The position numbers and the translations under genes are program-made. The notes beneath the pieces were generated by a model. The model was given only the letters and a program-made list of their open reading frames with translations, was not told the origin of the DNA and made no database searches. From Candidatus Polarisedimenticolia bacterium (GTDB lineage: Bacteria; Acidobacteriota; Polarisedimenticolia; Gp22-AA2), in assembly GCA_050747445.1 (NCBI GenBank), contig JBOGOE010000229.1:2511-66510 (forward strand): DNA of 64,000 nucleotides, given 5' to 3'. This document shows, in pieces, positions 24,700 through 37,786 of the stretch (its first letter is position 1; each line of letters opens with the position of its first letter).

Positions 24700-25739
24700 G
24701 CGGCGCCCCTCCCGAGGCCGGTTTCCAGGATGGTCTCGGCGATGCGCACGGCGTTCAGGGTGGTGCCCCCGACCAGATCATCAGCCGCCGCCCACAGCCA
24801 CGCGGACCCCTCCTCCGCCGGCCGCACACCCCCGACCAGGATCCCCGGCTTTCCCGCCCGCCCCACCGGCGTGACCGCCTTGCCCGGAGGCGCCAATTCG
24901 AGGTCCGGAGCCGAACGCAGCGCCTCCGGCAGCTCGGACGGCTGCCGCCCCTCCGGCAGGACGACCCGGAGGAGCACGGTGTGACAATGGAACACCGGCG
25001 CCAGAACCACCTCCACCTCGAGACCGTATCCATCTCCGGTCACGCGCAGCACCTCCTGCCGCAATCGTGCCGGATCGGAGCCACCGGGCATGGCGCCGCC
25101 CGCGTAGGCGGAGGACGGGATCAGATTGAAGGCCAGCTGCGACCCGTGGACGGCCGTGGGCAGGTCCTGGAAGTTGAGGACACCGAGCGTCTGCCGGTAG
25201 AGCTCGTCGATCGCCCCTTCCCCGGACCCGGAGGCCGGCTGGAAAACGACTGCGGTCGCCGCGCGGAGGCCGGGGCCGCGCCGGATCGGGGCCAGCACGC
25301 TCGAAAGGATCTGCGCCATGGGACCGGGAGCGGCGATCACCGACGGTGCCGGCGGGATCGCCTCCGGATTGACCGCGACGTTCACCACCGGCACCCCGGT
25401 GCGCTCCGGGGAGGCGGCGGTCAGGTCGATGGCGGTGAAGCCGATCCTCCGGGCCCACTCGTGATAGGGGAACGGTTCCGTGCCGGTCCCGCAGAGGAAC
25501 GCCAGATCGAGGCTCCCCAGCGCGTCCGGATCGGGTCTGGCGACCAGCATCGCCTCGCCGCCGAAGTCGGTGAGGTTGGCGTCCGGGTCCTCGCTGCTGG
25601 TGAACAACCGGACCGAGGCGGTGGGGAAGGCGCGCGCGACCAGCTGGTCCTTGAGGCCCTTGGCGAGCAGCGTGGTGGCCTCGAAGAGGGCGATGTGGGC
25701 CTTGAGGCGCGGCGGCGGGCGGGCTTCAGACCGCGCCAT
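24696..25739 (-). CDS. Aspartate-semialdehyde dehydrogenase family protein lacking catalytic Cys and Rossmann glycines (probable pseudoenzyme)
   Basis: Clear Asd-family blocks (FQPASGSGEGAIDELYRQTLGVLN, QLAFNLIP, VGGVRPAEEG...LVGGTTLNAVRIAETIL). The NxNCST active-site Cys position reads APGPMAQ, and GxxGxxG is replaced by ALFEATTLLAKG. Confidence 0.6.
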   Translation of the reverse strand: MARSEARPPPRLKAHIALFEATTLLAKGLKDQLVARAFPTASVRLFTSSEDPDANLTDFGGEAMLVARPDPDALGSLDLAFLCGTGTEPFPYHEWARRIGFTAIDLTAASPERTGVPVVNVAVNPEAIPPAPSVIAAPGPMAQILSSVLAPIRRGPGLRAATAVVFQPASGSGEGAIDELYRQTLGVLNFQDLPTAVHGSQLAFNLIPSSAYAGGAMPGGSDPARLRQEVLRVTGDGYGLEVEVVLAPVFHCHTVLLRVVLPEGRQPSELPEALRSAPDLELAPPGKAVTPVGRAGKPGILVGGVRPAEEGSAWLWAAADDLVGGTTLNAVRIAETILETGLGRGAA

Positions 25740-26484
25740 CGTTTCCCCCGGCCGTCGCCGGCCGCGCCTGCTCCTTGGGCGCCGCGCGGCCGGAGCGCGG
25801 CAGGAAGCCCGAGACCAGGTAGGCGAAGCTGAGCACCAGCCCCACCAGCTGGGGCGAGGCGGCGACCACGAAGTAGACGAGCGCGACGAGCAGCACCAGG
25901 ACCCAGCGGATGCGCGATCGAAGGTCGATCTCCTTGAACGAGCGGTAACGCACCTTGCTCACCATCAGTCCCGCCAGGAGCGTGAGCAGGACGGCAACCA
26001 TCCCCCCGGCGACCGGGTCGGTGATCCTCTCGGGGCTGTAGAAAACGCACGCGGAGACGACGCAGGCCCCCGCCGGTATCGGCAGCCCGACGAACCAGCG
26101 GCGGTCCTGACCCGGGGACTGGATGTTGAACCGGGCCAGACGGGCGGCCCCGGCGGTCACGTAGAGGAACGGCGCCAGGGACCAGGGCTTCGGAAGGGAC
26201 GCGAGGGCCCACATGTACGCCAGCAGCGCCGGCGCCATGCCGAAGGAAATGACGTCGGCCAGGGAGTCGAGCTGTACCCCGAAGTCACTCGTCGTACCGG
26301 TGAGACGCGCCACCCAGCCGTCGACCCGATCGAGAACGGCCGCGATGAACAACGCCACGGCCGCCCACTCGAACTCCCCCTGGATGCTGCGCACCACAGT
26401 GATGTAGCCGCACAGCAGGTTGCCGATGGTGAACAGGCTCGGCACCAGGTAGGCTCCGCGGCGGAAACGGGTCCGCTCCTTCAC
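25726..26484 (-). CDS. pssA: CDP-diacylglycerol--serine O-phosphatidyltransferase (CDP-alcohol phosphatidyltransferase family)
   Basis: Motif DRVDGWVARLTGTTSDFGVQLDSLADVISFG (D-x2-DG-x2-AR...G-x3-D-x3-D), 6 TM helices. Confidence 0.85.
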   Translation of the reverse strand: MKERTRFRRGAYLVPSLFTIGNLLCGYITVVRSIQGEFEWAAVALFIAAVLDRVDGWVARLTGTTSDFGVQLDSLADVISFGMAPALLAYMWALASLPKPWSLAPFLYVTAGAARLARFNIQSPGQDRRWFVGLPIPAGACVVSACVFYSPERITDPVAGGMVAVLLTLLAGLMVSKVRYRSFKEIDLRSRIRWVLVLLVALVYFVVAASPQLVGLVLSFAYLVSGFLPRSGRAAPKEQARPATAGGNDGAV

Positions 26485-27188
26485 CGGGCGGCTCCGGCGC
26501 CCGCGGCCCGCCCGGTTGCCATCGCGCCGGTGTCCCGGGCACGGGCCAGGATCGTCAGTCCGCCGCGCACGCGCTGCCCGATCGCCACCAGCGGCTCGAC
26601 TCCCGCCGGCAGCCGCAGGTCGGTGCGCGACCCGAACCGGATGAGACCGATCCGCTCGCCGCGCGACACGGCGTCTCCGGGGCGCTTGGTGCAGACGATC
26701 CGGCGGGCGACGATGCCGGCGATCTGCGTCACGCCGTAGCGGCCGTCCGCCGCTTCGAGTTCGAGGTGATTGCGCTCGTTCTCACGGCTCGCCCGCCCCT
26801 GCCACGCCGGGTGGAAACCTCCCGGGGTGTGGCGCACCGACACGACCCGCCCCGCCACCGGGGAGCGATTGATGTGACAGTCGAACAGGCTCAGGAAGAT
26901 CGAGATACTGGCCCCCTCAGGCTCGCGACGGACCTCGGTGACCCGGCCGTCGGCGGGGGCCAGCACCAGATCTTCCCCCGGCGGCGGGACGCGTTCGGGA
27001 TCACGGAAGAAATAGAGGAAGAAGGCGCCCGCCAGAACCGCCGGGGCCGCCCCAAGAGGTCCGAGGACGTACCCGAGCAGCACCGCGAGCGCGGCGGCTC
27101 CGAGCAGGAACGGAAATGCCTGTGGGGCGACCGGCACGATGGTTCTCCCTGCAGGAGGGGGCGGGCCCCGGGGCGACCGGGGCGCCAC
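26481..27188 (-). CDS. psd: Phosphatidylserine decarboxylase proenzyme (short PSD type)
   Basis: FLSLFDCHINRSPVAGRV and self-cleavage GS(T) region FGSRTDL. 4-nt overlap with pssA. Start position uncertain. Confidence 0.8.
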   Translation of the reverse strand: MAPRSPRGPPPPAGRTIVPVAPQAFPFLLGAAALAVLLGYVLGPLGAAPAVLAGAFFLYFFRDPERVPPPGEDLVLAPADGRVTEVRREPEGASISIFLSLFDCHINRSPVAGRVVSVRHTPGGFHPAWQGRASRENERNHLELEAADGRYGVTQIAGIVARRIVCTKRPGDAVSRGERIGLIRFGSRTDLRLPAGVEPLVAIGQRVRGGLTILARARDTGAMATGRAAGAGAAR

Positions 27189-27198
27189 ACACGTCCGT

Positions 27199-27447
27199 CT
27201 AGGTCCGAACGCCGGCGCCGGTCGCCCGCTCGATGCGGCCCCTGAGGATGGCCTCCATCCGGTCCTTCAGATGGAGCTTCTGTTTCTTGATGTTGACGCT
27301 CTCGAGGCGTTCGCCGTCGTCGAGGACCGCCTTCCCCTGGAGCTCCTGCAGCCGGGTTTCGCAGCGGGCATGCTCCTCAAGCAGGTTGCGGTACTCCTCG
27401 TCCGTTTCCGCGAGTGTTCGCCTCAGATCTTCGTGGATGTGCCCCAT
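27199..27447 (-). CDS. Small DUF465/YdcH-like coiled-coil protein
   Basis: 82 aa, MGHIHEDLRRTLAETDEEYRNLLEEHARCETRLQEL... Located in a different frame inside the longer spurious ORF 27199..28089. Sits 10 nt upstream of psd. Confidence 0.5.
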   Translation of the reverse strand: MGHIHEDLRRTLAETDEEYRNLLEEHARCETRLQELQGKAVLDDGERLESVNIKKQKLHLKDRMEAILRGRIERATGAGVRT

Positions 27448-27557
27448 CGGCCTCAACCTCCTGGGATGTGCAGGCTTTTCGACCGAACCTGACGGCGGGT
27501 CACTGGTCTCATCTGGCCGGAATTCTATCACCTGGGATGGCCCCCCGCAAGCCGCGG

Positions 27558-28001
27558 TCAGCCACGCCGCGGGACGATTGGGCGGGCCATGACGATGGCA
27601 TCCTCGTGGGTGTCGGAATAGTACTGTTTGCGGCGCCCGACGGCGACCAGCCCCGCCTTCCGGTAGAGCCGGATCGCCGCCAGGTTGCTCGGCCGGACTT
27701 CCAGGGTGACCTCCCGGCACCCCTGCTGGGCGCCGAACTCGACGAGAAACCGGAGCAGGCGTGTTCCGATCCCCCGGCCCCGGACCTCCGGGTGGATGGC
27801 GAGGTTGTTGACCTTCATCTCCTCGTCCAGCACCCAGACGCAGGCGAACCCGAGCACCCGCATCCGATCCGGGCTCTTGATCACGAACAGGCTGGCGTAG
27901 GGGTTCTCGAACAGCTCGTGGCGGAACGACGAATCGCTCCACGGCGTGGGAAACGATCGTTCCTCGATCTCGAGTACCCCGGGCAGATCGTCCAGGGTCA
28001 T
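27558..28001 (-). CDS. rimI: Ribosomal-protein-alanine N-acetyltransferase RimI (GNAT)
   Basis: GNAT motifs (LAIHPEVRGRGIGTRLL, RLYRKAGL). Adjacent to tsaB, the classic tsaB-rimI pairing. Confidence 0.8.
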   Translation of the reverse strand: MTLDDLPGVLEIEERSFPTPWSDSSFRHELFENPYASLFVIKSPDRMRVLGFACVWVLDEEMKVNNLAIHPEVRGRGIGTRLLRFLVEFGAQQGCREVTLEVRPSNLAAIRLYRKAGLVAVGRRKQYYSDTHEDAIVMARPIVPRRG

Positions 28002-28045
28002 CCCGGAGATGACGGCGGCCGTCGGCGATCGGGATCTGCGTCCCT

Positions 28046-28735
28046 TCAGGGTCGACGTCTCCGCCTCGCCACGTCCGCCGGGCGGACATAGTTGGGCCGC
28101 AGCGTGCCGGGCCGGTATCCGGTCGATCCGGCCAGGGTCTCTCCGGCCCAGACGGCCACCGCGCCGGCGAGCACCGGCGATGGATCCAGGGTGGCGAAGG
28201 TTCGCCCGGCAGCGGCCGCCTCGCGGATCAGGGCGGCCGCGCCGTCCCCGGCCAGCAGGACACCCTCCGGCAGGAGGGCCGGGAGATCGCAGGGCCTCCA
28301 GGCCCGGTCCTCCCCGGTCCGTGACAGCCCGCCGGGACCGGTCCGGAACACGGTCGCGTATACCTCCCCCCGCCCCGCCTCGAGGACCGGGCAGATCGCG
28401 GGTGGGGCGGGGTCGAGGTGCCGGAGCGCCGCCAGGGCCAACGCTTCGAGCGTGGAAAGTCCGCTCACGCCGATGCCCAGCGCGTAGGCCAATCCCTTCG
28501 CGGTCGCCATGCCGACACGGACGCCCGTGAACGACCCGGGGCCGGTGGTGACGCCGATGCCCGCCAGATCGGCGGCCTGCAGACCCAGCCCACGCAGGAG
28601 GGCGTCCAGCCGGGGCAGGAGATCCAGCGCATGGGCGCCGCGTTCCTCCAGGACCGTCTCACCCAGGAGGCGCCGGTCGTGCGCCAGGGCGATGCTGCCG
28701 CGGCCGGTCGCCGTGTCGATGCCGAGGTACGGCAT
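28046..28735 (-). CDS. tsaB: tRNA threonylcarbamoyladenosine biosynthesis protein TsaB (YeaZ)
   Basis: MPYLGIDTATGRGSIALA..., VTTGPGSFTGVRVGMATAKGLA. Start ATG 28733-28735 overlaps stop of upstream GGDEF-PilZ gene. Confidence 0.85.
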   Translation of the reverse strand: MPYLGIDTATGRGSIALAHDRRLLGETVLEERGAHALDLLPRLDALLRGLGLQAADLAGIGVTTGPGSFTGVRVGMATAKGLAYALGIGVSGLSTLEALALAALRHLDPAPPAICPVLEAGRGEVYATVFRTGPGGLSRTGEDRAWRPCDLPALLPEGVLLAGDGAAALIREAAAAGRTFATLDPSPVLAGAVAVWAGETLAGSTGYRPGTLRPNYVRPADVARRRRRP

Positions 28736-29949
28736 CAGCCCGTCGCGAGCAGTCCGCCGCGGCGGAGGAACTCCGTGATCTGGGCTTCCTGGTGCTCCCA
28801 CTCGAGCAGGAAGGCCGCCCCGACCTCGTAACGGCCCGCCTGCCCTTCGATCTCCTCGACGCGCACCACCCGGCCCCGGAGGGTCAGCCGCGCCCGGTCC
28901 CGGGCGTCCTGGCAGACGATGGTCACTTCCTCCCCGAGGACGTAGGCGCGGTCGCTGTCGAACAGCAACCCGCTGCGGCTGATGTTGCGTGGCTCGCTCC
29001 CCTCGTCCGGGGACGTCGCGTCCCGCGTCGCGTCCGCCGGTCCCACCCGGATCTGAACGCCACGCCCCCGCGTCTCGAAGCGGATGAAATTCCGCCGCTC
29101 GCGATAGTAGACCCCCACGGTATTGCCGCCCCGCGCCTTGGCCTGGTGCATCGCCTCCTCGCTCCGGCGGAGCAGGCGGTCGGCGACCGTCGCGTCGTCG
29201 GGGTACTGCGACATGCCGAGGGTCACGGTCATGCCGATCGGCCGGCCATCGATGTCCCGCCGCAGGAAGTGACGCTCGATCTCCTTGCGGATCCGCTCGG
29301 CCACCAGGAACGCCCCCATCCGCTCGGTCTCCGGAAGGATGAGCCCGAACTCCTCGCCCGCGATCCGCGCCGCCATGTCGATGTCGCGGATCTTGTTCTT
29401 CAGGAGAATCGCCACCTCGCGCAGGAGGATGTCGCCGACGAGCTCGCCGTACCGCTCGTTTGTCTCGCGGAAGTTGTCGAGATCGACGTACAGGACGCAC
29501 AGGTTGAGTTCGTACCGCTTGGCCCGGCGGGTCTCCTTCTGGAGGGCGGTGAGGAACTGGCGGGCGTTCCAGAGTCCCGTCGCTCCGTCCACGGGTGACG
29601 AAGGGTCCGGCCGTTCCTCGAAGGCCAGGTCGATCAGGCGCGGCTGGGTCAACTGGCGGTTGACGTTGACGAAATAGTCCAGGACCGCCACGCGCAGACC
29701 GACGTCCCGCTGCAGCCGGGCGGCCAGGGTCCGGCGGTGGGACAGCACCCCCTCCCAGTGACGGCGGGCCTCGGACTCCTCGAAGGGCAGACCGGTCAGG
29801 ATCAGCAGGAGCGCGGCGTATACCTGGAGGCCGCTCTGCGTGCGGATCTGGTCCAGCCGCCTCAGGATCCGCTCCTCGTTGTGAGCGTCCTCCTTCAGGA
29901 CGCCGACCAGCTCGTCCTTGTAGCGGGTGGCCTCTTCCAGCGTGATCAC
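28735..29949 (-). CDS. Diguanylate cyclase-like GGDEF (AGEEF variant, I-site RDID present) fused to C-terminal PilZ domain
   Basis: GGDEF-domain blocks (LYVDLDNFRETNERYG, RIAGEEFGLILPET, RxxD = RDID). PilZ motifs RRNFIR and NISRSG. GTG start 29947-29949 overlaps TGA of upstream paralogue (GTGA). Confidence 0.75.
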   Translation of the reverse strand: MITLEEATRYKDELVGVLKEDAHNEERILRRLDQIRTQSGLQVYAALLLILTGLPFEESEARRHWEGVLSHRRTLAARLQRDVGLRVAVLDYFVNVNRQLTQPRLIDLAFEERPDPSSPVDGATGLWNARQFLTALQKETRRAKRYELNLCVLYVDLDNFRETNERYGELVGDILLREVAILLKNKIRDIDMAARIAGEEFGLILPETERMGAFLVAERIRKEIERHFLRRDIDGRPIGMTVTLGMSQYPDDATVADRLLRRSEEAMHQAKARGGNTVGVYYRERRNFIRFETRGRGVQIRVGPADATRDATSPDEGSEPRNISRSGLLFDSDRAYVLGEEVTIVCQDARDRARLTLRGRVVRVEEIEGQAGRYEVGAAFLLEWEHQEAQITEFLRRGGLLATG

Positions 29950-31085
29950 GACCGGTCCCCCGGGACGGCCGCCGGCCGGCCGGCCGGACCGGCCCCGGGG
30001 AGATCGGCGACCAGATCGGCGAGCCTTCCGCGCGCCCCCGGCTGCGGCAGGAAGCTCACCGCCGCGACCGACCCGCCCCCCGCGACCGGCCGGCCGCTGC
30101 GCACGACACGGGAGCCGAGCACCATCACCCGGGAGCGGACCGCCGATCCGCGCAGCGCGAGACGGATCGCGGCGCCCCGGGGCAGCACGTCCTGCGTCGC
30201 CAGGAGCGCGCCGCCGAACGACACGTCCTCCACCCGGGCCTCGGCGCGCCGCCCCGCGTGCTCCAGGGAGGCGGTCATGCCCCCGGGCGGCCGTACCCGC
30301 GCGTGGGCGCGTCGCTCGGATCGCGCGACTTCGACCCGCCCGCCTCCGTCGCAACGGGCACGCCGGAGCGCCTCGCGCGCTCCCTCCTCCAGCTCCCGCA
30401 CCGGGACCGGGGTTTCACCTGGCGCCCGGCCGGCGACGCCACCGCTCCAGGAGACGCCCGTGGCGTCGACCAGGGCGATCCGGTAGCGTTCGGCCGCGCG
30501 CCGCGCGGCCGCCGCATCCGTACAGGGAAGGAGGACGGTCAGCACGTCGCCGGCGCCGCGGACCCAATCGCTGTCGCGGGTCACATGGCGGAGGAGGTCC
30601 GGACCGCCCTGCTCCGCGCCGTCCGATGGCGGATCGGGCGCCAGCGCGACCCAGGCCACAGGTCGTCTCGATCGGTCGGCGCGATGCCGTTCCAGCCGGC
30701 CGCGCTCCTCGTCCATTCCGGCCGGAGCGCCGGGCCCGGAACCGTCGGCAGCGGCCGTGCCGCCCTGCCGGATCACCGGCCCCCCGGGGAGTCCTTCGCC
30801 CCCCCGCAGGTGGTCGAGCGCCGCCACGACGAATCCCGGATCCCGCCCGAGCACCGACTCGAGCCGTGCGCGGTGGGTCTCGATTTCGAGGAAGGCGGTG
30901 CGGGCGCGGGGTTCCGGCAGATCGAGCGCGAGCAGGTCACGGACCAGGCAGCGGAACGGCTCGACGCGGTGACGGGTCCCGAGGGCGAACACGGCGCTGC
31001 AGAGCGCTTCGCCACGCAGCCCTGGATCCGCCAGGGCCCCGCGGAGCTCAAGGTGAACGGCGTGCGCGGCGTCCTCCGGGCTCAC
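29946..31085 (-). CDS. Paralogous protein with degenerate GGDEF-like domain (RGAGDVL in place of GGDEF) and C-terminal PilZ domain
   Basis: N-terminal about 100 aa is similar to that of 28735..29949 (LLALDLPEPRARTAFLEIETHRARLESVL vs LILTGLPFEESEARRHWEGVLSHRRTL). Central VRGAGDVLTVLLPCTDAAAARRAAERYR aligns to the GGDEF C-terminal half. PilZ motifs GRRAEAR and DVSFGG. Confidence 0.65.
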   Translation of the reverse strand: MSPEDAAHAVHLELRGALADPGLRGEALCSAVFALGTRHRVEPFRCLVRDLLALDLPEPRARTAFLEIETHRARLESVLGRDPGFVVAALDHLRGGEGLPGGPVIRQGGTAAADGSGPGAPAGMDEERGRLERHRADRSRRPVAWVALAPDPPSDGAEQGGPDLLRHVTRDSDWVRGAGDVLTVLLPCTDAAAARRAAERYRIALVDATGVSWSGGVAGRAPGETPVPVRELEEGAREALRRARCDGGGRVEVARSERRAHARVRPPGGMTASLEHAGRRAEARVEDVSFGGALLATQDVLPRGAAIRLALRGSAVRSRVMVLGSRVVRSGRPVAGGGSVAAVSFLPQPGARGRLADLVADLPGAGPAGRPAAVPGDRS

Positions 31086-31185
31086 GACGTCCCTCCGCGA
31101 CCGGGCCGGATGTTAATGGGAACAACCCTGACTGTCAACAAACGCCGCGAGCGCAGCGGCAGAATAGGCCGCCGGGAAAAAAATT

Positions 31186-31214
31186 TTGACAATTACTTGA
31201 CTGCGCCTTATATT
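31186..31214 (+). promoter_or_regulatory. Near-consensus sigma70-type promoter TTGACA-N17-TATATT for prkA, in an AT-rich island
   Basis: ttgaca 31186-31191, 17-nt spacer, tatatt 31209-31214. GAGGA Shine-Dalgarno (31236-31240) before ATG 31246. The surrounding 31170-31245 is strikingly AT-rich for this genome. Confidence 0.55.
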
Positions 31215-31245
31215 ACCGGACAGTTGATGCGAAGCTGAGGAAAGC

Positions 31246-33381
<2,136 letters not shown>

Positions 33382-33466
33382 AGGACGTGACGGGCCACGC
33401 CCCTGAGGGGCCGCGGCGGCCGGCCGCCCGCTCCGCAGGGGCTTTCGTTTCAGGGGCCTCCCGGCC

Positions 33467-34573
33467 ATGATTCTGCGGATCGAAGGCGACCACAGCCGCT
33501 TCAAGCAGATCGTCCGCGGCAAGATCAAGAAGGAGCTGCGGAAGTACATCAGCAGCGGAGAGCTGATCGGCCGGCGCGGCAAGGACCTGATCTCCATCCC
33601 CCTCCCGCAGATCAAGATCCCCCAGTTCGTCTATGGCCAGAAGCAGACCGGCGGCGTCGGCCAGGGCGAGGGCGCGGTCGGCACCGTCCTGGGCGCCGGG
33701 GAGATGGAGGGGGGCCAGCAGCAGGCGGGGAACACCCCGGGGGAGCACCTGCTGGAGGTCGACATCAGCCTCGACGAACTCGCCGCGATGCTGGGCGAGG
33801 AGCTCGAGCTGCCGGCCATCAAGCCCAGGGGGCGCAAGAACATCCTGTCGCACAAGGACCGTTACACGGGGATCGCGCATTACGGGCCGGAGACCCTCCG
33901 GCACTTCAAGCGGACCTACAAGGAGACCCTCAAGCGCAGCATCGCGACCGGCACGTACCGCCCGGATTTCCCAATCCTGATCCCGATCCGGCAGGACAAA
34001 CGCTACCGCTCCTGGAAGTCCGCGGTCATGCCGCAGGCCAACGCCGCGATCCTCTACATGATGGACGTGTCGGGGTCGATGGGCGAGGAGCAGAAGGAGA
34101 TCGTGCGGATCGAGTCCTTCTGGATCGACACCTGGCTGCGCCATCACTACAAGGGGGTCGAGATCCGCTACATCATCCACGACGCGGAGGCGCGCGAGGT
34201 CGATCGCGAGACCTTCTACCACACGCGCGAGTCGGGCGGGACGGTGATCTCCGCCGCCTACAAGCTGTGCGCCCGCATGATCGACACCGACTACCCCGCC
34301 GACGAATGGAACGTCTACGGGCTGCACTTCTCCGACGGCGACAACTGGTCCCAGGGAGACACCGAGGAGTGCGTCAACATCCTGAAGGGGCAGATCCTGC
34401 CCCGCGTGAATCTGTTCTGCTACGGACAGGTCGAGAGCCCCTACGGGACCGGGCAGTTTCTCGTGGACCTCAAGGAGGCCTACGGCGACGACGAGCGGGT
34501 CGCGCTCTCGAAAATCGAGAACAAGGACGGCATCTACCAGTCGATCAAGGACTTCCTGGGGCGGGGGCGATAG
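33467..34573 (+). CDS. yeaH: YeaH/YhbH family protein (DUF444, VWA-like)
   Basis: Conserved DUF444 blocks ([44 protein letters not shown]). Canonical partner of prkA. Confidence 0.9.
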
Positions 34574-34577
34574 CGCC

Positions 34578-36067
<1,490 letters not shown>

Positions 36068-36068
<1 letters not shown>

Positions 36069-37786
36069 TGAGCGAGCCCGCAGCTCCCGGATCGTCCGCC
36101 CAGTCCCAGGCATCGCCGGCACCGGTCGCCGCGGCGTCCGGCGTCCGCCAGTCGGTCTGGGCGCTGGCCGGCGGCAAAGGAGGCGTGGGTCGTTCCCTGT
36201 TGTGCGCCAATCTCGGGATCCAGCTGGCCCGCATGGGGCGTCGTGTCGTCCTGGTCGACCTCGACCTGCAGGGCAGCAACCTGCAGTCCTATCTCGGGTT
36301 CCAGCGGATGCCCCGCACCCTCGCGGACTTCGCGTCCGGCAAGGTCCGCCTGCTGTCGGAGATCGCGTGCGAGACGCCGACCGGGCATCTGCGGCTGGTC
36401 GGCGGGCTGCAGCGGGGCGAGGCCGGCGACGACCCCGTGGCCTTCGTGCGCCAGGTCGCCGCGCAGTTCGGAACGCTGCATGCCGACCAGGTGCTGGTCG
36501 ACTGCGGGTCGGGCCGGTTCCCGGCCACCATCGCCGCATTTGCGGAGGCGACTGTCGGCATCCTGGTCACCACGCCGGAGCCCGCCGCGCTCGAAGGGAC
36601 CTACCTGTTCACCGAGTCCTACCTGCGCTGGTGCCTGGTCCGCGCTTTGACCGGCGAACGGATGGCGGAGGTGGATCGGCGTCTCAAGGACGGCGGTCAC
36701 GACACCGCGCGCGCGTCGTTCCGCGGATTCATGACCCGGCTGGGGGCCATCGATCCCGACGCCCGCGACACCATCGCCGGCGTGGTCCGCCGGACGCGCC
36801 TGGAGCTGGTGTTGAACCAGGTGCGCGGCGAGACCGACGAGGAGGCGACGGCCTCGTTGCAGAGCGGCTTCCGCAAGTGTTTCGGGCTCAACCTCCAGAC
36901 CGCCGGCGCCATCGAGCACGACCTGTCGATCCTGCAGTCGGTGCAGAAGCGGCGCCCCCTGTCCCAGCAGTATCCCAACGCCGCTTCCACCAAAGGGATC
37001 GCGCGGGCCGCGACCCGGCTGCTGGCGGTGTCCGGCGCTCCCTTGCGCGAGGCCGACGAGGAGTGGGAGGACCTCGACGCCATCGATCACTATCGCGTCC
37101 TCGAGGTGGTCCCCAAGGCCTCCCCAAAGGAGGTCCAGTCGGCCTATCAACTCCTGAAGAAAACCTACGACCCCGAGACGACCGTGCTCGCCCCCCTCAT
37201 GGACGCCCCCGGACTGCGCGAGATGCAGGCGCGGATCGAGTCGGCCTACCGCACGCTGATCTTCCTGGAAAGCCGCTCGGATTACGATCGCCGGCTCCTG
37301 GACAAGGGTCGCGATCGCGACCGCCAGCCCGGGGCCCCCTCTCCGGCGGCCGCTCCGGCCGCACCGGTCGAGCCGGCCGGCGAAGGGGGGACGCTGGAGA
37401 TGGCGGGTGGGAATTCCCCCCCCATGACGCCCCCACCCGCGCCCGCGTCGACCGCCACGAGCGACCGGGCGACAGTATCCCCGGAGGAGCCGGACGCGAC
37501 CTCGCCGACGCCGGTGACCGCCGCCACGGCCGCCCGGGCCCCCCCGGGGTCCCCGCCGGACAGGCGATTCCCGCCAGCGGCGGCGAGCTCCGCGACGAAC
37601 GCCAGAGGCGGCGCCAGACGCTGGAGGGAATTGCCGAGAAGACCAAGATCCGGCGCGCCTACCTGCAGGCCATCGAGGAGGAGCGTTTCGGAGACCTGCC
37701 GGCCGCCGTCTTCGTCCGCGGCTTCATCAGGGAGTACGCGCGCAGCCTGGGGCTCCCCGGCGACGAAGTGGTCCGGCAGTACATGA
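36068..37786 (+). CDS. ParA/MinD-like P-loop protein with Walker-A Lys-to-Arg substitution (GGKGGVGRS), degenerate J-like domain (HPD replaced by YDP) and Pro/Ala/Thr-rich linker; 3' end likely mis-framed
   Basis: ATG 36068 overlaps spoVR TGA. Deviant Walker A aligns to MinD/ParA xKGGxGK[ST] but has R at the catalytic Lys. J-like DHYRVLEVVPKASPKEVQSAYQLLKKTYDPE. After about 37545 this frame becomes implausible while the -1 frame encodes an HTH. Confidence 0.55.

Follow-up and report, generated by a model that had tools for sequence, protein, structure and literature searches.

Tandem GGDEF-PilZ paralogues in the acidobacterial class Polarisedimenticolia: a predicted two-site c-di-GMP receptor beside an enzyme-like copy with a non-canonical active site

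Within a 64,000-nt stretch of contig JBOGOE010000229.1 from a Candidatus Polarisedimenticolia bacterium (the window; G+C ~70%), we analyzed two adjacent minus-strand genes, here called A and B, each of which encodes an N-terminal helical domain, a GGDEF-type domain and a PilZ domain. An earlier reading of the window, made from the letters alone (the sequence-only reading), had presented them as tandem, translationally coupled paralogues, and the coordinates, strand and reading frames that it gave for both were correct. The two genes and their junctions are as follows.

29946..31085, minus strand: gene A, 379 amino acids (aa), GTG start; N-terminal helical domain, degenerate GGDEF fold and PilZ domain
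28735..29949, minus strand: gene B, 404 aa; N-terminal helical domain, GGDEF domain (AGEEF) and PilZ domain
29946..29949, minus strand: GTGA, in which the TGA stop of gene A and the GTG start of gene B overlap by 4 nt
28733..28737, minus strand: TGATG, in which the gene B stop and the ATG of tsaB overlap by 1 nt

The GTG start of gene A has the sequence GGAGGG 6-7 nt on its 5′ side. The GTGA overlap, from which co-translation of A and B had been proposed, is present as described and is kept in 22 of the 28 related loci in which the junction could be scored, which supports coupling of A to B. A database protein identical (100%) to the product of gene A, from a Candidatus Polarisedimenticolia metagenome-assembled genome (MAG), is annotated as "PilZ domain-containing protein". 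Open reading frames (ORFs) on the opposite strand, for example that at 29927..31189 (plus strand, 420 aa, Arg/Pro-rich), were rejected as artefacts of the high G+C content (70%), since the homologues and domain matches of A and B lie in the minus-strand frames.

Profile searches assigned both of the expected domains to the product of gene B. It matched the Pfam GGDEF family (PF00990) over residues 120-276 with an E-value of 2e-36 and 125.6 bits (cut-off 23.8), TIGR00254 with an E-value of 1.7e-39 and 135.2 bits (cut-off 37.4), and the Pfam PilZ family (PF07238) with an E-value of 1.5e-7 and 32.1 bits (cut-off 22.5). Its AlphaFold2 (AF2) model superimposed on solved GGDEF domains with template modelling (TM) scores of 0.83-0.91 and a root-mean-square deviation (rmsd) of ~2 Å. 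The AGEEF signature and the RDID inhibitory site (I-site) reported by the sequence-only reading are both there, as are the two PilZ motifs.

29122..29592, minus strand: B GGDEF domain, aa 120-276, carrying DLDNFRETNERYGELVGD, RDID, AGEEF and AKARGGN
29377-29388, minus strand: B I-site RDID, aa 188-191
29347-29361, minus strand: B signature AGEEF, aa 197-201, which departs from the canonical GG(D/E)EF
28765..29103, minus strand: B PilZ domain, aa 283-395
29080-29097, minus strand: B PilZ motif RRNFIR, aa 285-290
28969-28986, minus strand: B PilZ motif NISRSG, aa 322-327

The catalytic residues of B were scored against those of PleD. In PleD, D327 and E370 bind the metal, E371 is the catalytic acid, N335 and D344 recognize the guanine base, and K332, K442 and R446 serve the phosphate or the transition state. 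Residues 120-278 of B correspond to 291-449 of full-length PleD (chain 9g85_A), an offset of +171 that also draws on the established numbering of the PleD motifs. B retains the metal ligands and the acid (D156/D158, equivalent to D327/D329; E199/E200/F201, equivalent to E370/E371/F372), the guanine-recognition residues N164 (N335) and D173 (D344, encoded at 29431-29433 on the minus strand), R195 (R366), K271 (K442), and the I-site, consisting of R188/D191 (R359/D362) together with R219 (R390). Changed relative to PleD are A197 (G368), R161 (K332), E165 (D336), E169 (H340) and G275 (R446), so that the alignment gives a non-canonical active site.

The product of gene A matched the Pfam PilZ family (E-value 3.6e-6, 27.7 bits, cut-off 22.5) and gave no Pfam GGDEF match, even at E-values up to 1. 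Four lines agree that its middle domain is, by sequence and model, a reduced GGDEF fold. BLASTP aligned A with B collinearly over 290 aa at 26% identity (E-value 0.001), and an hhalign comparison of profiles built from 16 A and 34 B homologues gave a probability of 99.4% and an E-value of 1.3e-21 over 340 columns that extend from the N-terminus through PilZ, indicating full-length paralogues. A hidden Markov model (HMM) of the wider-family GGDEF domain matched A at 5e-5. The AF2 model of A, with a mean predicted local distance difference test (pLDDT) score of 78 and scores of at least 70 for 299 of its 379 residues, aligned with WspR and other GGDEF domains (Foldseek E-value 2e-7, TM 0.56-0.69, rmsd 3.1-3.5 Å) and with the PilZ domains of MotI, BcsA and Alg44 (Foldseek E-value ~2e-4). 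Profile search, hhalign and the AF2 models thus agree, well above what chance would give, with the earlier description of paralogues sharing a similar N-terminus of ~100 aa; hhalign, the family HMM and the Foldseek match to WspR bear out a degenerate GGDEF domain in the upstream copy, which we predict to be catalytically dead.

30327..30722, minus strand: A degenerate GGDEF-fold domain, aa ~122-253
30567..30578, minus strand: A RDSD, R170-D173, aligning with the I-site RxxD
30486-30488, minus strand: A partner Arg R200, equivalent to PleD R390
30036..30317, minus strand: A PilZ domain, aa 257-350 (Pfam match)
30297-30314, minus strand: A PilZ motif RRAHAR, aa 258-263
30210-30227, minus strand: A PilZ motif DVSFGG, aa 287-292

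The sequence-only reading had noted that the upstream copy had lost its GGDEF signature, which is right but understates the change, as most of the GTP-binding loop has been deleted as well. The signature position of A reads GAGDV, and most of the stretch that matches DLDNFRETNERYGELVGD in B is missing, the remainder carrying no residue of the GTP-binding loop. The deleted stretch corresponds to the DxDxFKxxNDxxGHxxGD loop present in B and in basal A-type copies. None of the catalytic residues (the DxD loop, the N335 and D344 equivalents, GG(D/E)EF) is found in A; less decayed A-type copies at related loci (L006 and L004) do match PF00990. Because the GTP-binding loop and the GG(D/E)EF signature are both lost, A is predicted to be a pseudo-enzyme that cannot act as a cyclase.

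The residues associated with binding of cyclic di-GMP (c-di-GMP) show a different pattern. We counted them in 40 distinct A orthologues and in 120 cluster representatives of B orthologues. B has at least 1960 database relatives, of which the best 120 are full-length, 62-96% identical, all with GGDEF and PilZ, and, where named, from MAGs of Polarisedimenticolia or Acidobacteriota. A word-indexed search returned 16 relatives of A, 33-77% identical, on contigs that also carry relatives of B. The PilZ motifs were counted in the forms RxxxR and [D/N]hSxxG, as refined for c-di-GMP binding in bioRxiv 10.1101/814665.

I-site RxxD, five residues ahead of the signature position: A 40/40; B 120/120
Arg equivalent to PleD R390: A 40/40; B 120/120
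PilZ RxxxR: A 40/40, as [RK]RxxxR; B 120/120
PilZ [D/N]xSxxG: A 40/40 (one with E); B 120/120
GG(D/E)EF position: A unconserved; B first position never Gly (Ala 101, Ser 19), second Gly lost in 9/120
D327, N335, E371 and K442 equivalents: A lost; B 120/120 each
E370 equivalent: A lost; B 119/120
K332 and R446 equivalents: A lost; B always Arg and always Gly, Ala or Pro, respectively
D344 equivalent (guanine recognition): A lost; B Asp 70, Gly 39, Asn 7, Ser 4

Signatures among the 120 B representatives comprise 91 AGEEF, 19 SGEEF, 8 ADEEF, one AAEEF and one AGDEF, with no GGEEF. Since the binding sites of B are invariant and its catalytic positions variable, selection appears to have acted more consistently on binding than on catalysis; taken over both families, the counts suggest that selection is absolute on predicted c-di-GMP binding, and that selection on catalysis has been abolished in A and is partial in B. 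D344 has thus eroded in a family 62-96% identical overall, in contrast to the c-di-GMP-binding residues, which do not vary.

Because all 40 A orthologues keep RxxD, the R390 equivalent and both PilZ motifs, we predict that A is a two-site c-di-GMP receptor, an assignment that follows the example of PopA, PelD, SgmT and canonical PilZ proteins and is probably correct. The sequence-only reading had called A "receptor-only". The lack of a cyclase site agrees with that term; the implied dependence on PilZ alone does not, given I-site residues in every orthologue and hence two predicted sites. It could also be supposed that A is a functionless duplicate, a pseudogene in progress, since it evolves fast (30-45% identity where B shows 58-79%), lacks the catalytic loop and does not reach the Pfam GGDEF threshold. 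We consider this very improbable: the ORF is intact in ~40 distinct orthologues, 36 columns are invariant in the alignment of 16 A sequences, the I-site Arg, Asp and Arg and the PilZ motifs stand in 40/40, the AF2 model is confident, and the overlap with B is conserved.

Precedents for such a receptor exist. PopA of Caulobacter crescentus is a paralogue of PleD with a degenerate GGDEF domain that binds c-di-GMP at its I-site, according to PMC3974145. PleD and PopA form the closest functional analogue of the A/B pair, in that one paralogue is catalytic and the other, like A, lacks the active site and keeps RxxD. They differ in carrying N-terminal receiver domains where A and B have an unnamed helical domain, in having no PilZ domain, and in being neither adjacent nor translationally coupled; furthermore, the signature of PleD is the canonical GGEEF and that of B is AGEEF, accompanied by K332R and R446G. 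PelD, SgmT and CdgA (PMC3509222 and PMC3974145) are likewise cyclase-inactive GGDEF folds that bind c-di-GMP by the I-site, as is predicted for A. Each has a single c-di-GMP site and other partner domains (membrane/GAF, histidine kinase), and, unlike A, none is known to have a PilZ domain or to lie beside a catalytic paralogue.

The role of B is more finely balanced. We give an even chance to the possibility, drawn from sequence and analogy, that B works, weakly or conditionally, as a diguanylate cyclase under double product feedback, through its I-site and its fused PilZ domain. The sequence-only reading had named it a c-di-GMP synthase, and most of the catalytic residues are indeed present, but the assignment is insecure in view of G368A, K332R, R446G and the loss of D344 in 50 of the 120 representatives. 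The combination of D344 and AGEEF seen in the window is shared by 54/120 and is the most enzyme-like found in the family. As the sequence-only reading had also held, variants of the AGEEF type have been reported to be active: purified VCA0965 of Vibrio cholerae, an AGDEF enzyme, makes c-di-GMP, and A, G, M or H can stand at the first signature position (PMC3974145). VCA0965 resembles B in the change of the first Gly to Ala and in its intact RxxD; it differs in lacking a PilZ domain and in reading AGDEF rather than AGEEF, and the other substitutions of B are not reported for it.

As the main alternative, A and B may both be receptors only, with the GGDEF domain of B folding, and perhaps binding nucleotide or metal, and making no c-di-GMP; the pair would then sense, through four sites, c-di-GMP supplied by cyclases whose genes lie elsewhere. 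Taken for the family as a whole, the site census favours a receptor-only B: none of the 120 representatives departs from the I-site (R, D, R) or the PilZ residues, none has Gly at G368, all have Arg at K332 and Gly, Ala or Pro at R446, 50 have lost D344 and nine have lost G369. Relatives in the wider family that carry GGEEF are canonical elsewhere in the site too (FK, ND, GH, G(K/R)N), which points to coordinated active-site drift in the B clade. We nevertheless regard this possibility as rather doubtful. B of the window keeps D156, D158, N164, D173, E199, E200, F201 and K271; the equivalents of the metal ligands, N335, E371 and K442 are present in 119-120 of 120, which is hard to explain without nucleotide or metal binding; VCA0965 is active in vitro; and R273, which lies two residues before the lost R446 and is kept in 119/120, may compensate for it.

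The same positions bear on the product that B would make. Replacement of D344 by Ser reportedly marks the Hypr-type GGDEF enzymes, and B could be imagined to be one, making another cyclic dinucleotide such as 3′,3′-cyclic GMP-AMP (3′,3′-cGAMP): its best sequence match of solved structure is the Geobacter GGDEF domain 6d9m, with Ser at the D344 position, and that position holds Ser in four, and Gly or Asn in 46, of the 120 B orthologues. B of the window, however, has Asp (D173), the guanine-specific state, and all four Ser variants co-occur with ADEEF, a broken signature, so that we consider a Hypr-type B hardly credible.

The arrangement of the two genes was followed in 26 MAG loci from a scan of species-representative genomes (L008-L033) and seven metagenome loci (L001-L007), together with further relatives (L048-L051). 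The order A-B-tsaB was found in ~35 metagenomic loci of Polarisedimenticolia/Acidobacteriota; in nearly all of those with sufficient flank, A lies directly upstream of B and tsaB directly downstream. Across L001-L033, A is 30-45%, B 58-79% and TsaB 38-58% identical to its counterpart in the window. These values imply that B is under tighter constraint than the adjacent housekeeping TsaB, unusually tight for a signalling protein, and that A, at 30-45%, has been free to drift everywhere but at its binding sites. Four MAG loci labelled Binatia, Dongiaceae, Cryosericum and Verrucomicrobiia (L014, L020, L022 and L031) carry B orthologues 65-77% identical, with tsaB directly 3′ of B and, except in the short-flanked L020, an A-type copy on the 5′ side; the most likely source of these labels is faulty binning or labelling of the MAGs. 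The state of the two GGDEF domains differs among relatives as follows.

L048 (5001-7118) and L050 (3759-6227): both copies canonical (GGEEF)
L051 (1606-4073): upstream copy GGEEF, downstream copy degenerate (GEDGF), the reverse of the window
L028, L025, L026 and L006: upstream copy of full length with GGAHF, GGGHF, GGSHF and EGASF, respectively; downstream copy GGEEF in L028 and A/SGEEF in the other three
Window clade: upstream copy also without the GTP-binding loop; downstream copy A/SGEEF
L049: single-copy relative in a different gene context

The pair stays in order, mostly with the 4-nt overlap, in lineages where the identity of B has fallen to ~45%. We therefore view A and B as copies of a three-domain protein that arose by an old tandem duplication and have been kept together. 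It seems that either of them can turn into the pseudo-enzyme, as would be expected where two duplicates work jointly. In principle, the two could be independent of each other, B as an ordinary feedback-inhibited cyclase and A as a distinct PilZ/I-site effector acting on another target, with overlap and synteny reflecting co-expression only. Contact between A and B is not among the results of the analysis, tandem paralogues with overlapping stop and start codons are common in GC-rich operons, and L049 carries a relative in one copy. Against this stand the persistence of pair, order and overlap at such low identity, the decay of either member (L051 compared with the window), which is typical of duplicates in hetero-complexes, and an N-terminal motif, HRxxLxxxLxRDxGxxVAxxD, found in both families. 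Independence is, in our judgement, unlikely.

That motif belongs to a helical N-terminal domain (NTD) of ~100 aa shared by the two families.

30795..31085, minus strand: A NTD, aa 1-97; five-helix bundle (AF2, pLDDT ~90), no Pfam family
29650..29949, minus strand: B NTD, aa 1-100; very strongly conserved

The conserved pattern of the B NTD is EDAHNEERILRRLDQIR...HWxxILxHRxxL...RVAVLDYF. The A NTD matched nothing in Pfam at E-values up to 10, an NTD profile found nothing meaningful among PDB sequences, and Foldseek searches with the whole A and B models were dominated by the GGDEF domain. Residues 67-96 of B (within 29635-29949, minus strand), a conserved C-terminal helix pair (HRRTLAARLQRDVGLRVAVLDYF), gave a sub-threshold match to the last 30 positions of the DUF4032 family (E-value 0.005, 17 bits against a cut-off of 23.8), and a remote relationship of the B NTD to DUF4032 is possible. 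Searched against 1.84 billion representatives, a profile of the NTD alone retrieved 929 proteins at E-values up to 0.001; the best 150 of these are mostly ~400 aa long with the same three-domain layout, many of them with canonical RxxD-GGEEF. The cluster names said almost nothing about the taxonomy of this wider family. Since the GGDEF and PilZ domains both have nucleotide roles and the NTD has none, and since conservation of the NTD in B is extreme, we take the NTD as the most likely surface for output or interaction.

Our best overall explanation, built from sequence and analogy and on which we are evenly poised, is that B is a conditional cyclase, A is a two-site receptor, and the two associate. 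B would make c-di-GMP weakly or conditionally, and this output would be fed back on B itself via the I-site and the fused PilZ domain. A would act as a dedicated two-site receptor and pseudo-enzyme, made in a fixed ratio with B through the conserved 4-nt stop/start overlap. A and B would associate via the shared NTD and/or by c-di-GMP bridging of their I-sites, and the complex would read the level of c-di-GMP, whether from B or from other cyclases, and pass it to a target via the NTD. Whether such a complex forms, by either route, could go one way or the other. The "self-contained local circuit" of the sequence-only reading is something that we, too, can only infer from the arrangement of the genes.

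Several considerations weigh against this explanation. B departs from canonical cyclases at four places simultaneously (G368A/S, K332R, H340E/D and R446G/A/P), and among its representatives the guanine-recognition Asp is replaced in 50/120 and the second Gly in 9/120, the binding sites never, which argues that catalysis may not be a property under universal selection in the B family. A cyclase needs two GTP-loaded GGDEF domains, and an A:B heterodimer would consequently be inactive. The interaction of A with B is purely what we infer; the NTD seems to belong to no named family; the order shared with tsaB, psd and pssA may simply have been inherited, with no functional link; and a search of the literature found no characterized GGDEF-PilZ fusion, returning census-type mentions only.

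A bolder form of the proposal would make the pair a c-di-GMP switch, obligately hetero-oligomeric and of a type so far undescribed, to which the enzyme-derived B and its pseudo-enzyme sister A would each contribute an I-site and a PilZ site, so that four sites per heterodimer, cross-linked by c-di-GMP, would give an ultrasensitive on/off response. The drift of the B active site (G368A/S, K332R, R446G, variable D344) would then record the conversion of a cyclase into a nucleotide-loaded sensor, and output would pass via the NTD to a core target. Given the fixed operon context, this target could perhaps be N6-threonylcarbamoyladenosine (t6A) modification of tRNA or phosphatidylethanolamine synthesis. 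We regard this bolder form as improbable.

That operon context, and the remaining features around the pair, are listed here.

25726..28735, minus strand: same-strand downstream cluster of tsaB, rimI-type GNAT, DUF465, psd and pssA-type genes
28046-28735, minus strand: tsaB (PF00814)
27558-28001, minus strand: rimI-type GNAT gene, 44 nt after tsaB
27199-27447, minus strand: DUF465 protein gene
26481-27188, minus strand: psd
25726-26484, minus strand: pssA-type CDP-alcohol phosphatidyltransferase gene, overlapping psd by 4 nt
31246..36068, plus strand: divergent operon of prkA, DUF444/yeaH and spoVR
31110..31138, minus strand: promoter-like site TTGACA-17-TAACAT, ~25 nt 5′ of the gene A start (consensus match only)
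31186..31214, plus strand: sigma-70-like site ahead of prkA, back-to-back with the minus-strand site (consensus match only)

Translational coupling of the pair into tsaB, rimI and the phosphatidylethanolamine genes had been suggested. B and tsaB do overlap, by 1 nt, but the junctions beyond give no sign of it: 44 nt separate tsaB from rimI, and beyond rimI there are more gaps, the sole overlap among rimI, DUF465, psd and pssA being that of psd with pssA. Nor is the coupling of B to tsaB general, as relatives mostly have a gap of 7-15 nt at this junction, and sometimes -4 or 0. Throughout Ca. Polarisedimenticolia, and in Acidobacteriota MAG lineages that branch deeper, the pair precedes tsaB-rimI-psd-pssA-asd. 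The same downstream order is seen in L001-L007, L050 and L051; in L050 the pair is followed by tsaB-rimI-psd-pssA-asd, and the L048 contig ends within the downstream copy.

Both sigma-70-like sites fall inside the 160-bp divergent intergenic region (31086-31245). They are the only two in the 6.4 kb scanned, where shuffled sequences predict 0.1, and the promoter-like site is consistent with gene A being the first gene of its operon, as far as a consensus match goes. A terminator-like hairpin (31161..31143, minus strand) overlaps the back-to-back promoter matches. In several related loci the divergent neighbour of the pair is an extracytoplasmic function (ECF) sigma factor, mostly with a zf-HC2 anti-sigma factor (L006 3357-4619, L007 547-1809, L028 1954-2580, L048 3588-4804, L050 2386-3611, L051 232-1047); in the window prkA occupies this position, with no sigma gene between. 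The prkA-DUF444-spoVR stretch (32001-36000) has a G+C content of 0.63, against ~0.70-0.72 on both sides. Directly after spoVR, overlapping its stop, lies an ORF at 36065-37786 (plus strand), whose counterpart in L001 (91-1914) encodes an unusual 607-aa fusion in which a ParA/CbiA ATPase is joined to DnaJ and HTH_25 domains and which accompanies the prkA operon. Searched with Rfam at the gathering score, the window yielded no RNA element, riboswitches included. In the 64 kb, A and B were the only matches to family HMMs for GGDEF, PilZ and the NTD; EAL and HD-GYP domains were not searched for. A role in anti-phage defence was rejected, PADLOC having given no matches.

All of the parts described here belong to well-known families, and GGDEF-PilZ fusions themselves have been known since 2006. 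Fusions of PilZ to GGDEF, EAL and HD-GYP domains were catalogued by Amikam and Galperin (2006), as cited in bioRxiv 10.1101/814665, and PilZ-GGDEF proteins of saprophytic Leptospira are tabulated in PMC5932348. With a c-di-GMP-metabolizing domain and a PilZ domain on one polypeptide, these are the closest architectural precedent for A and B. They differ in being catalogue entries without functional study and, in Leptospira, in having the opposite domain order; as far as these sources present them, neither a tandem enzyme/pseudo-enzyme pair nor such an NTD is described. Our literature search found no description of a tandem, translationally coupled enzyme/pseudo-enzyme GGDEF-PilZ arrangement, of a degenerate GGDEF I-site and a PilZ site in one receptor, of the A/B NTD, or of reciprocal decay across lineages.

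With an enzyme-like and a pseudo-enzyme copy side by side, and intermediates in relatives, the pair is a natural test case. B is a very strongly conserved signalling protein in the uncultured acidobacterial class Polarisedimenticolia, a poorly known lineage, and the locus could show how a cyclase becomes a receptor, and whether fusion to PilZ adds product feedback beyond that of the I-site.

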